DNA of 7,076 nt from the IMG/VR virus record IMGVR_UViG_2061766007_000731; one strand, 5' to 3'. This document shows positions 2,581 through 5,362 of this stretch, piece by piece. How positions within the stretch are numbered: position 1 is the stretch's first letter; each line of letters starts with the position of its first letter. The notes under the pieces are model-generated. The model did no database searches. It saw only the letters and a program-made list of their open reading frames with translations, and was not told the DNA's origin. The position numbers and the translations under genes were made by a program. The stretch is from an uncultured virus (IMG/VR IMGVR_UViG_2061766007_000731). Lineage: Duplodnaviria; Heunggongvirae; Uroviricota; Caudoviricetes.

Positions 2581-2997
2581 CTAAATCAAATTTTCTAAAC
2601 AATATTTAATAGCAGCTTCACAGGCTTCTTCATAAGTTTGATAGAAGACCTCATCAACGGCATCTTGAAGCATCATTTCAAAATCTGAATCAGTTTTCTG
2701 GATAACCACATAATATCCCGTGTGGCCTCCGCAAGCCCAGGAATCAAGCATTACCTGAATATAATAATGATGTACTTCCCTCAGCCACTTCATAGCCATT
2801 TGAAGAGTTGGAGCGGAATAACATTTATGTGGTTCTATTGTATTATCTAAATCACTATTAGACAATGGGGCAGATAGAGTAGTAAACAAAATGCCAACTG
2901 CTTCTTTTTCTTCATAACAGTGAAAAGAAGCATAATCAAACCCCTTCTCTTTCAGGAGTTTTGCCACTTCAAAGGAAACATAATCTTCTGTAACCAT
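2581..2997 (-). CDS. Hypothetical phage protein, 138 aa
   Basis: ORF MVTEDYVSFEVAKLLKEKGF...APTLQMAMKWLRE...TYEEACEAAIKYCL, tightly packed with neighbours. Resembles a common Bacteroidales phage family of unknown function (from memory). Confidence 0.85.
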   Translation of the reverse strand: MVTEDYVSFEVAKLLKEKGFDYASFHCYEEKEAVGILFTTLSAPLSNSDLDNTIEPHKCYSAPTLQMAMKWLREVHHYYIQVMLDSWACGGHTGYYVVIQKTDSDFEMMLQDAVDEVFYQTYEEACEAAIKYCLENLI

Positions 2998-2999
2998 AG

Positions 3000-3395
3000 T
3001 TATTTAGTTTTATACATTCCTTCAGGTGCATCAAGAGCAAGTCCTTTTTCAATCAAACCTCTAAAATCAAACATATGTTCATTAAGCCAATCATATGTCT
3101 TAATTGTTGGATAATCTTGAATTGATAATGTTTTTGTATAATTATACTCTCTTTTTTCTTCCTCGGTCATACTTGACATTGGACGAAGATATGGTTTGAC
3201 TTCCCCAATTTTAAAAGGTCTGCTGCCACTTTCAGANNNNNNNNNNNNNNNCCACCCATCGAATGTATCTGGGTAAATGTTAGTTATTTTCCAATGCGGA
3301 ACTTCAAATTCATTTTCCTTATAGTCAACGATTACCCCATAAGGTAATCTTGCGCAAAGGTCTTTCAACAGCAATTGTTTTTCTTCTTGTGTCAT
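3000..3395 (-). CDS. Hypothetical phage protein, ~131 aa
   Basis: ORF MTQEEKQLLLKDLCARLPYGV...KPYLRPMSSMTEEE...DFRGLIEKGLALDAPEGMY, in frame across a short gap, TAA stop. Resembles a common Bacteroidales phage family (from memory). Confidence 0.85.
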   Translation of the reverse strand: MTQEEKQLLLKDLCARLPYGVIVDYKENEFEVPHWKITNIYPDTFDGWXXXXXSESGSRPFKIGEVKPYLRPMSSMTEEEKREYNYTKTLSIQDYPTIKTYDWLNEHMFDFRGLIEKGLALDAPEGMYKTK

Positions 3396-3516
3396 ATAGA
3401 TAATATTTTATTTTATTTATACATACAAATAANNNNNNNNNNNNNNNNNNNNNNNNNNNNNNNNNNNNNNNNNNNNNNNNNNNNNNNNNNNNNNNNNNNA
3501 TTATTTAATAATTAAG

Positions 3517-3555
3517 TAGTCTTGCTGGGACTCCAACCCAGAACTTACAGATTAT
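3517..3555 (-). tRNA. 3' half of a tRNA (anticodon N-A-U Ile/Met type, or N-C-U Arg); 5' half not visible
   Basis: Minus strand: ATAA-TCTGT-AAGTT-CTGGG TTGGAGT CCCAG-CAAGACT-A, with correct spacing for tRNA positions 35-73 and a perfect T stem. No matching 5' half in unmasked sequence. Confidence 0.7.
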
Positions 3556-3996
3556 TTAATAGTTCTATACCTATAAAAACGATCACTATTTTTATTTTTA
3601 AATTTGTATGTATCTAATTGACTATCACAATTTGGACAAATACAACGTAAATTATCACGTTTATTATTCGAAGCATGANNNNNNNNNNNNNNNNNNNNAA
3701 ACTAATTTTTGACCATTTCATTCAGGAGATATACCACAAATAGCACACTTATTATCTTGTTCTTTTAGTATATCCTCTTTAAAAATCCTTGGAGAATAAT
3801 TAGCTCTCATTATACTTGGGTCTCCATCAATTATTAATTGATACTTTTGTTTATGTTGAAACTGTTGTTGACATTGTAATGAGCAATATTTTCCATTATG
3901 TTCTGGATATTTTATAAATTCTTTTCCGCAATTAATACATTTAGAAATAGGATAGTTTTTATTAACCTCGATTTTATTATTAAATTTACTATGTTT
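3552..3996 (-). CDS. HNH endonuclease with Cys-rich zinc-binding motifs, start hidden in gap, requires TGA=Trp
   Basis: Manual translation: ...KCINCGKEF...GKYCSLQCQ...KCAICGISPE*NGQKLV[gap]HASNNKRDNLRCICPNCDSQLDTYK...RTIK-TAA. This matches the HNH pattern C..C....WNG..L.L.LDHIDG...NN...NLR..CPNC.SQ. The two visible halves are one nt out of frame across the 20-N gap, probably from inexact gap length. Confidence 0.85.
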
Positions 3997-4538
3997 NNNN
4001 NNNNNNNNNNNNNNNNNNNNNNNNNNNNNNNNNNNNNNNNNNNNNNNNNNNNNNNNNNNNNNNNNNNNNNNNNNNNNNNNNNNNNNNNNNNNNNNNNNNN
4101 NNNNNNNNNNNNNNNNNNNNNNNNNNNNNNNNNNNNNNNNNNNNNNNNNNNNNNNNNNNNNNNNNNNNNNNNNNNNNNNNNNNNNNNNNNNNNNNNNNNN
4201 NNNNNNNNNNNNNNNNNNNNNNNNNNNNNNNNNNNNNNNNNNNNNNNNNNNNNNNNNNNNNNNNNNNNNNNNNNNNNNNNNNNNNNNNNNNNNNNNNNNN
4301 NNNNNNNNNNNNNNNNNNNNNNNNNNNNNNNNNNNNNNNNNNNNNNNNNNNNNNNNNNNNNNNNNNNNNNNNNNNNNNNNNNNNNNNNNNNNNNNNNNNN
4401 NNNNNNNNNNNNNNNNNNNNNNNNNNNNNNNNNNNNNNNNNNNNNNNNNNNNNNNNNNNNNNNNNNNNNNNNNNNNNNNNNNNNNNNNNNNNNNNNNNNN
4501 NNNNNNNNNNNNNNNNNNNNNNNNNNNNNNNNNNNNNN

Positions 4539-4574
4539 TTAAAAAATCTCCAGAAACTATTAAAACTGGAGATT
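4539..4574 (-). terminator. Hairpin plus TTTTAA (terminator-like or tRNA-leader element)
   Basis: 9-bp inverted repeat AATCTCCAG (4545-4553) / CTGGAGATT (4566-4574), followed on the minus strand by TTTTAA. Confidence 0.5.
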
Positions 4575-4675
4575 GGCCCCATCATTAAATAGGAGGTGTA
4601 AGAATCTATCCTATAATAGTTTTTTAAGTCAAATCTTATGAAGTTCTACAATTTGTCTTTGATGCTCATGCATCG

Positions 4676-5362
4676 TAGCTCAGGCCGGACTCGAACCGGC
4701 ACGGTCATTACTGACCAACGGATTTTCTTACCACTATAGTTTTCACTACCAAATTTTACAACCTTTTGACGTGTCACTATTGAAAGTGAATGCCTATTCT
4801 AAGGCTAGACTCGAACTAGCAACATAACCTTGCACGTTATTCCGTTTTAACTAAATTTGTTTGTGGTCTGGACTCTATCTTAACCATATTGAAATCTTGC
4901 AAGAACTATTGTTTTATGTCCATCTTTCAGGTTTAGTACAATAGCAAATTTATTTCAACTTAGGCCCCTCCTGTATAGTCTCTACACACGCCTGTTAGCC
5001 TTCTACCACTCTAAAAGATAGGGCTTCTAGTATGCTAACTGCTTGGCTCGGTATTAGCATATAAAGTCCGTGTTCTTCTCTCTCCTAAACCATCGTTGGC
5101 TATCTTCACAGAAATTCCATTAATAGGAGTATAGGACTTGTCCTTTAAGCTTTAACAAGTTAATTTACACAATTATCCGTATCGTATGCCTTATATTACT
5201 ATAAGTAACGCTGCGCGACCTGTAAAACTTTACTTAGCTTTCACCGAATTAGGGAGGTTCTGCATCTGGAGTTTCCCCCAGTGCACTCAAATTTATAACT
5301 TACTGTCTATCAACAAGTTAAAGACAAAAGTCCGTAGTGTCTACCTATTCCACCACTGAGCC
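4676..5362 (-). tRNA. trnL: tRNA-Leu(UAA) split by a group I intron; exon 1 5362-5328, exon 2 4726-4676
   Basis: Joined exons give GGCTCAGTGGTGGAATAGGTAGACACTACGGACTT|AAAATCCGTTGGTCAGTAATGACCGTGCCGGTTCGAGTCCGGCCTGAGCTA: acceptor GGCTCAG/CTGAGCT, anticodon stem ACGGA/TCCGT, loop CT-TAA-AA, long variable arm GGTCA/TGACC, T arm GCCGG-TTCGAGT-CCGGC, discriminator A. Confidence 0.95.
4727..5327 (-). ncRNA. Group I self-splicing intron (601 nt, no ORF) between U34 and A35 of tRNA-Leu(UAA)
   Basis: P1 exon ACUU pairs with IGS GAGU (5288-5285) including the U.G splice-site pair. P2 CUGGGG-GAAA-CUCCAG (5281-5266), P3 CCUCC/GGAGG (5257-5253 / 4971-4967), P4 UUCGGU/ACCGAG, R GUGUAGAGACUA, S AAGAUAGAGUCC, ACCAC/GUGGU helix, terminal G at 4727. 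Confidence 0.95.

Follow-up and report, generated by a model that had tools for sequence, protein, structure and literature searches.

How the coding sequence of a phage nuclease comes to end inside the anticodon loop of a tRNA, and whether such a tRNA can still work, is the question raised by a locus of an uncultured virus of the Caudoviricetes (IMG/VR record IMGVR_UViG_2061766007_000731). The whole stretch of DNA that was analysed, 7,076 nucleotides long, is called the window in the following. For the junction between an HNH endonuclease ORF and a tRNA 3' half a first-pass annotation of the letters had offered three readings: an atypical tRNA intron with its core hidden in a masked stretch, a split tRNA, or a free-standing nuclease cassette whose insertion into a tRNA left a displaced 3' fragment. 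These readings are weighed here with the help of 54 loci carrying relatives of the HNH gene, 18 of them viral (IMG/VR) and 36 metagenomic.

All genes of the window are encoded on the minus strand and the gene content is phage-like. The DNA was found nearly complete in two bovine gut runs of one sample (X1 and X2) and in part in other rumen runs, and the closest HNH relatives are encoded on crAss-like phage genomes, namely cr116_1, cr53_1 and Zeta-type contigs such as L063. The phage is crAss-like, partly TGA-recoded and derived from rumen samples. TGA is read as Trp in two nuclease ORFs (3717-3719; 179-685) and is apparently used as a stop in an ATGA stop/start overlap at 1848-1851 between two GC-richer genes, so that the recoding appears to be partial or gene-class specific. 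The coordinates of the features around the junction are summarized in Table 1.

Table 1. Features of the window at and upstream of the junction between HNH ORF and tRNA 3' half.
Feature	Position	Strand	Basis and remarks
tRNA 3' half, positions 36-73	3517..3554	-	Direct reading, T-arm motif test, homology; consists of loop TAA, anticodon-stem 3' strand, 5-nt variable loop, T arm, acceptor 3' strand and discriminator A
HNH homing-endonuclease ORF, visible part	3552..3996	-	Translation, PHROG match, identity to relatives
Short mask in the HNH ORF (20 N)	3679..3698		Site of the catalytic DH..G segment in relatives; frame shifted as printed
Masked stretch (542 bases)	3997..4538	.	Presumed about 145 nt of HNH N-terminus plus about 395 nt of other content
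Hairpin (9 bp) with U-rich tail	4539..4574	-	Folding; stem part 4574-4545
tRNA-Leu(UAA) with group I intron of about 600 nt, ending in G	4675..5362	-	ARAGORN with introns, Rfam

The HNH ORF and its junction with the tRNA 3' half

The HNH ORF continues into the mask, and from relatives of 202-206 aa its start is expected near 4140. It is readable only with TGA as Trp, which occurs at a conserved PEWNG motif. At 3679-3698 the same sample provides a contig with two additional letters and no other difference from the window; it restores the frame with eight codons, as in the relatives. The N-terminal part matches phrog_1271, annotated as 'HNH endonuclease', with an E of 4e-9 in PHROG, its relative L010 matches phrog_10822 (E 2.6e-22), and the homologues in cr116_1 and cr53_1 are annotated as HNH endonucleases; the Pfam families HNH_3 and Endonuclease_7 match the HNH relatives only below their cut-offs. 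The sequence shows two CxxC pairs, CAIC and CPNC, along with the NN..N segment; the DH segment lies under the 20-N mask. The N-terminal and C-terminal parts are 72.5% and 84% identical to the L010 type, compared with 41% and 72.5% for the in-loop type of cr53_1; the best HNH identity in protein-anchored searches was 71%. At its C-terminus the ORF is 2-8 residues shorter than the L010-type and other free-standing relatives, and relative to the L010-type loci the window misses just tRNA positions 1-35. The ORF looks full-length and belongs to an HNH family living flush against phage-array tRNA genes.

The ORF ends in ...DRFYRYRTIK*. That its stop codon TAA (3554-3552) is at the same time positions 36-38 of a tRNA had been claimed in the first-pass annotation and holds true on reading the minus strand, where the TAA is followed by TCTGT (positions 39-43), the variable loop AAGTT, the T arm CTGGG/TTGGAGT/CCCAG and the acceptor 3' strand CAAGACT, with A73 at 3517. 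The T-arm motif, defined by a perfect 5-bp stem, G53-C61 and the T-loop consensus, has four copies in the window, none of them on the plus strand. One each belongs to tRNA-Val, to tRNA-Leu, to a segment of the Leu intron and to the 3' half at 3517-3554. In block shuffles the mean was 0.008 copies, and four copies were reached in none of 500. The 3' half is homologous to the split tRNA of cr53_1 and to intact tRNA-Arg(UCU) genes. Its sequence points to an Arg(UCU)-type tRNA, with tRNA-Lys (UUU) as a further possibility. To the 3' half of the cr53_1 split tRNA it is identical at 30 of 38 positions (manual count from the alignment), and in the T stem the two differ by a compensatory change, C-G in the window versus A-T in cr53_1.

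A complete cloverleaf with paired acceptor, D, anticodon and T arms is not seen, as positions 36-73 alone are visible. Neither a 5' acceptor strand RGTCTTG nor a homologue of the D arm was found on the minus strand of the visible window, and ARAGORN, with or without introns, called no tRNA at the 3517-3554 locus. The junction of ORF and tRNA reads ACTATTAAATAATCTGT. A guanosine as last intron nucleotide is a defining requirement of group I splicing; direct reading bears out the earlier observation that there is no such G ahead of the exon, the sequence running ...ACTATTAAA up to the junction and TAATCTGT beyond it, with the nearest G 14 nt before the anticodon stem. Equally, the claim that no ribozyme core is visible stands: Rfam at E<=10 over 3400-4000 returned no intron and no ribozyme, the core motifs of the window's own intron family are absent from the same region, and a group I core (P3-P8 with the G-binding P7) is not seen in the visible sequence, the masked 542 nt lying outside this test.

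Exact scans for close relatives gave no match, neither with a 35-mer of the 3' half in viral contigs, nor with a 24-mer of it in metagenome contigs, nor with the hairpin in viral contigs. These scans thus yielded neither a close relative of the window's own phage nor an empty allele of it. In contigs of four runs no joint or loose end near 3552 was present among the matches listed, which is conclusive neither way, and contigs of the RNA run leave the 3' half uncovered. The relatives of the neighbouring gene at 2581-2997 share no tRNA context with the window except L006, which has a tRNA array upstream.

The masked stretch and the upstream hairpin

With the ORF start near 4140, about 395 masked bases are left between the start and the hairpin, far more than the leaders of 22-62 nt elsewhere in the HNH family. 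Candidates for this content are a tRNA 5' half, at least one complete tRNA, or both. It had been noted before that the hairpin beyond the mask resembles the one preceding tRNA-Leu; folding supports this and adds tRNA-Val, hairpins ending 6 nt before both tRNAs. The hairpin at 4574-4545 with its U-rich tail folds at -11.4 kcal/mol, and the three hairpins are singly unremarkable (z of -1.6, -1.1 and -0.6). By analogy this arrangement suggests that a tRNA 5' end starts near 4538, where probably at least one complete tRNA begins. The 5' half of the broken tRNA may lie just before the ORF or at 4538, or may be gone. None of the contigs of the four runs bridges 3997-4538, which again is conclusive in neither direction.

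Group I introns in tRNA genes of the window and of its relatives

Group I introns in tRNA genes are present in the window itself. The intron of tRNA-Leu(UAA) is inserted at the classical site between U34 and A35 and matches Intron_gpI of Rfam with 35.3 bits (E 3.3e-7), below the gathering score of 50. It was detected by Rfam only with a sub-region as query, and Rfam on the whole window at E<=1 also missed tRNA-Val; the sole match of that search, to Plastid-ycf2 on the strand opposite tRNA-Val, was rejected as spurious. The core motifs of this intron family occur at two places in the window, in the Leu intron and at 114-97. The latter belong to the 3' part of a second group I element at 60-685 on the minus strand, which shows 84% identity to an intron of L006. 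Its ORF at 179-685, with two TGA read through, matches the PD-(D/E)XK endonuclease family PF11645 of Pfam (E 6e-22).

Several observations concern the Leu intron on its own. Related cores are abundant in rumen DNA and RNA contigs, with a summed depth of up to about 3400 in RNA run X3. Its P9 region holds a tRNA 3'-half-like piece at 4792-4848 (minus strand), with a long variable arm, a perfect T arm GCTAG/TTCGAGT/CTAGC and an acceptor strand unpaired with the Leu 5' exon. DNA and RNA contigs join 4751/4752 to 4857/4858, skipping about 105 nt, and relatives lacking this piece therefore exist. Contigs of X3 moreover join the intron end at 4725-4727 back to 5261-5295. Circularised intron RNA may be behind this, as may an assembly artefact or relatives whose 5' ends differ.

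The HNH family itself is carried by group I introns in tRNA anticodon loops at five loci (L072, L073, L074/L075 and L076). L072 matches Intron_gpI with 57.8 bits, above the gathering score. L073 and L075 gave no Intron_gpI match at E<=0.01 and are called group I because of the core motifs and the terminal G that they share with L072 and with the Leu intron of the window, and because of the L072 match. In L072-L075, the four with visible exon junctions, the ORF starts 22-62 nt past the 5' exon, and the core lies behind the ORF and ends in ...GTAG or ...GTG right at the 3' exon; in L076 the core directly follows the HNH stop and the contig ends before the exon. The layout of the window is the opposite of that in L072-L075, with coding sequence up to the exon and no G.

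A split tRNA without room for a ribozyme in cr53_1 and its relatives

The closest counterpart of the junction was found in cr53_1 (locus L002), to which window 3515-3668 aligns at 3165-3001 with 75% identity over 166 nt in local BLAST, the alignment crossing the junction of ORF and tRNA. As found by ARAGORN with introns, the tRNA of cr53_1 (L002 2602-3164) is perfectly paired in its four stems and interrupted in the anticodon loop. The insert measures 488 nt and contains an HNH CDS of 426 nt plus stop (2695-3120), with about 58 nt ahead of it and 3-6 nt behind it. As the ORF takes up about 429 of the 488 nt, what remains is too short for a ribozyme such as a group I core; Rfam at E<=10 on the insert found no intron and no ribozyme. 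Relative to cr53_1 a further 5 nt of the anticodon loop are gone at the junction of the window. When run with long introns, ARAGORN also called split tRNAs in L015, L018, L020, L022 and L068. These are false, two complete neighbouring tRNAs having been mispaired, and they were rejected, since both tRNAs come out complete in ARAGORN's normal mode and in Rfam.

When IMG/VR was scanned for the 3' half with a degenerate pattern, 34 loci emerged, 27 of them cr53-like with identical flanks, while the remaining 7 are other tRNAs (Arg, Lys, Leu) of unrelated phages. Among the 27 cr53-like contigs, counted without de-replication, 15 contain an intact tRNA-Arg(UCU) with the loop CTTCTAA, 6 carry the HNH insert in the anticodon loop, 3 have the loop TTTTTAA, 2 the loop CCTCTAA, and in one (L030) about 22 nt are deleted from the D loop to the anticodon loop. 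Among the homologous tRNAs there are thus intact copies and copies that a related naked ORF interrupts at the same position, and the cassette is present in some and absent from other collinear genomes in which the empty site is intact. Judged by the alignments, this is the presence/absence pattern expected of a mobile nuclease gene, and it lends indirect support to a putative site-specific cleavage of nuclease-less alleles and to homing. The comparison with HNH-less relatives that had been proposed for the window accordingly succeeded for the cr53-like phages, 15 of 27 having the intact gene, but yielded no empty allele of the window's own phage. HNH-less variants are found at locus position about 1460-1534 in L030, L039, L046, L047, L048 and L056. 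The anticodon-loop variants and the deletion may be nuclease-resistant or healed target sites, as would be expected at a site under nuclease attack.

In the interrupted cr53-like alleles C35 is absent and T runs form the bounds of the insert, so joining of the halves could not restore the anticodon UCU. Both tRNA halves are flawless in all seven interrupted alleles (the 6 from IMG/VR and cr53_1), and where the acceptor varies, pairing is preserved (AGTTCCT opposite AGGAACT in L034; L061 has a G-U wobble). Such flawless halves fit a recent insertion and would fit selection on a working split tRNA as well. No spare tRNA-Arg(UCU) is encoded in cr53_1, whose other tRNAs are a CUA suppressor, Leu(UAA) and His. 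Genomes of this kind circulate nevertheless, and the phage presumably tolerates the loss of this tRNA.

The HNH family beside tRNA genes

Outside introns and split tRNAs, the HNH family is found next to complete tRNA genes. In 15 of the 54 loci a tRNA(UCU) overlaps the HNH ORF or lies within 15 nt of it on either side, the placements being a 22-nt overlap with the ORF end, 9 nt past the stop, or at most 15 nt before the start. At 6 further loci of the 54 the stop is overlapped by a different kind of tRNA or followed by the start of one within 10 nt. The order tRNA-Leu(UAA), HNH, tRNA-Arg(UCU) in cr116_1 equals that of the window and is also seen in L016.

In Zeta-type loci (L010-L013, L014/L067, L062-L065, L081) the HNH-adjacent tRNAs are 87-88 nt long with a long variable arm and the anticodon UCU (e.g., L010 3386-3473), that is, type II tRNAs with a Ser/Leu-like body; if these are charged according to their body, decoding of AGA/AGG would be unusual. 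An odd tRNA-like sequence at 3407-3482 of L017 directly past the HNH stop scores 35.3 bits in Rfam and was not called by ARAGORN.

A second precedent for the junction is provided by L078 and L079, which overlap and represent one element. Here tRNA-Leu(UAA) is followed by a tRNA 5' half that ends in the anticodon loop, an intact tRNA-Arg(UCU), 14 nt and an HNH gene of 142 aa, whose stop directly abuts a degenerate tRNA 3' fragment. The acceptor strand of this fragment pairs with the orphan 5' half in 7 pairs, 2 of them G-U (manual reading), and the element is a tRNA-Arg plus HNH cassette inside another tRNA. Broken tRNA 3' pieces right after the HNH stop therefore recur in the family.

Weighing the explanations

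Of the three readings offered at the outset, it is the last that the relatives favour, with a nuclease cassette inserted into a tRNA of which a 3' fragment stayed behind; cr53_1, the 6 contigs with the same insert and L078/L079 are its counterparts. From the sequence comparisons it is probable that a ribozyme-less homing-endonuclease cassette broke a dispensable Arg(UCU)-type phage tRNA at its anticodon loop and that 3517-3554 is the leftover. A hidden or unconventional intron of whatever type is, taken together, unlikely. One form of it, with a roughly 1-kb group I intron of the tRNA whose core lies in the mask upstream of the ORF and which splices at a non-G terminus, would be in keeping with the two tRNA-associated group I elements of the window, with the HNH family being carried by such introns in L072-L076, with masked sequence upstream of the expected ORF start that is long enough for a core, and with the hairpin hinting at a tRNA 5' end at 4538. 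However, in L072-L075 the core follows the ORF and is G-ended and in L076 it is likewise past the stop, whereas the ORF of the window reaches the exon and allows no P7/P9 sequence after it, the last visible G being that 14 nt before the anticodon stem. An upstream core is disfavoured because the 3' elements and the terminal G would still be missing, and cr53_1 has the same type of junction and no room for any core. We consider the intron with its core in the gap, as proposed initially, to be very improbable.

The interrupted tRNA might instead work, either because the insert is removed and the halves are joined by a non-group-I route, e.g., by a protein endonuclease and an RNA ligase or by a trans-acting ribozyme, or because the tRNA frame processes or stabilises the nuclease mRNA. 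The flawless halves and paired acceptor variants of the interrupted alleles and the lack of a spare copy in cr53_1 speak for this, as does the uninterrupted loop TTTTTAA of three contigs, which is the product expected from joining across the T runs. Yet the insert of cr53_1 matches no known ribozyme or intron family, with C35 lost the product of joining is not tRNA-Arg(UCU), and homing with short co-conversion tracts accounts for the matched exon variants with no selection needed. The partial deletion of the tRNA gene in L030 and the degenerate fragment of L079 argue that the gene is dispensable, and the window junction has lost 5 more loop nucleotides than cr53_1. Protein-only splicing of tRNAs is not known from bacteria and their phages; archaeal-type bulge-helix-bulge splicing and a split tRNA like those of Nanoarchaeum were considered as well, and an enzyme for this is not known from Bacteroidota and their phages. 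A working interrupted tRNA is thus given a slim chance. Highly doubtful is likewise the wider proposal that naked HNH ORFs in tRNA loops form a new class of phage tRNA intervening sequences without a group I ribozyme, or that the tRNA frame serves in processing the nuclease mRNA; if it were true, processing by, e.g., nuclease and ligase would give a working tRNA with its anticodon switched from UCU to UUU.

Within the preferred explanation, a sub-variant does without any insertion: a free-standing HNH gene upstream of an intact tRNA, from which a deletion took tRNA positions 1-35 together with the ORF tail and the spacer. On this view a 5' half should be missing altogether. The HNH protein of the window is nearest to free-standing types (the cr116_1 and L010 arrangement), its ORF is 2-8 residues shorter than these, the synteny Leu(UAA)-HNH-Arg(UCU) is that of cr116_1 and L016, and deletions at the site do occur (L030). 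Against it, the deletion must end exactly in the anticodon loop, the site of the cr53_1 insertion and of the introns, and leave an ORF of normal length, and the extra masked sequence of about 395 nt between tRNA-Leu and the ORF has no counterpart in cr116_1. This sub-variant accordingly appears conceivable and rather doubtful. Because the HNH of the window is closer to the L010 type beside an intact tRNA than to cr53_1, the in-loop cases of window and cr53_1 may have arisen independently, or a deletion may have produced that of the window. Within the preferred explanation, the 5' half has nearly an even chance of sitting in the mask directly ahead of the ORF, which is the cr53_1 arrangement. 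That it was deleted is a tentative possibility, and that it lies near 4538 with cargo, perhaps a whole tRNA, before the ORF, as in L078/L079, is unlikely.

Proposed mechanism and comparison with known systems

The broken tRNA could be explained by a mechanism modelled on intronless homing and on SegB of phage T4. During co-infection, the HNH endonuclease would cleave the uninterrupted tRNA-Arg(UCU) gene of a relative within the anticodon region or close to it, and recombinational repair from nuclease-bearing genomes would copy the cassette in. The insertion would destroy the cassette's own target and render the carrier immune to its own nuclease, at the cost of one accessory tRNA whose loss the phage would tolerate; 3517-3554 would then be a non-functional leftover and no exon.

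SegB, a GIY-YIG endonuclease encoded in the tRNA cluster of T4, cuts within tRNA genes of relatives lacking the nuclease and spreads together with flanking tRNA genes (PMC2330249); background on SegB and intronless homing is also given in PMC3984707. The loci described here resemble SegB in the position of a nuclease gene among phage tRNA genes, and the cr53-like contigs share the presence/absence polymorphism. They differ in that SegB lies between intact tRNA genes and recognises the T-arm, whereas in the window and cr53_1 an HNH gene lies inside a tRNA or truncates it at the anticodon loop. Bacterial group I introns in tRNA anticodon loops, such as the tRNA-fMet intron encoding I-Ssp6803I, have the insertion region and the carried nuclease ORF in common with these elements. 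L072-L076 and the tRNA-Leu of the window provide true group I introns in phage tRNA genes. The element of the window differs from these, being without visible ribozyme or terminal G, and the insert of cr53_1 is too short for a core.

According to a 2014 review, the phage introns then known were all in protein-coding genes, despite the many tRNA genes of phages (PMC3984707). The literature search, which covered main texts and left out most subscription journals, yielded no later description of group I introns residing in tRNA genes of phages, and none of a nuclease ORF lying naked in a phage tRNA. Crass-like phages of the Zeta group were described as extremely rich in introns and inteins and as TGA-recoded, and the contig OHFV01000001 (L063) contains 14 introns and 3 inteins (Yutin et al., PMC7886860). 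The window shares with them its closest HNH relatives, which are encoded on Zeta-type contigs, and TGA as Trp within nuclease ORFs. In the part of that study covered here, the Zeta-group introns are described in protein-coding genes, and the words 'tRNA genes' do not occur in its main text (Yutin et al., PMC7886860).

Implications

The element is a homing nuclease cassette of a known kind and involves no new mechanism; the window is best described as a nuclease gene plus what is probably a tRNA leftover. Its significance lies in the family, as a single kind of HNH endonuclease covers every stage proposed by theory for homing elements, being found free-standing next to its probable target tRNA, intron-borne, and naked in a tRNA. 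The tRNA arrays in which it lies constitute a natural series for how nuclease genes enter and outlive introns and for how dispensable phage tRNAs absorb the cost. At the same time, tRNA counts of crAss-like phages are distorted by the split, intron-bearing and truncated genes that standard tRNA finders miss.
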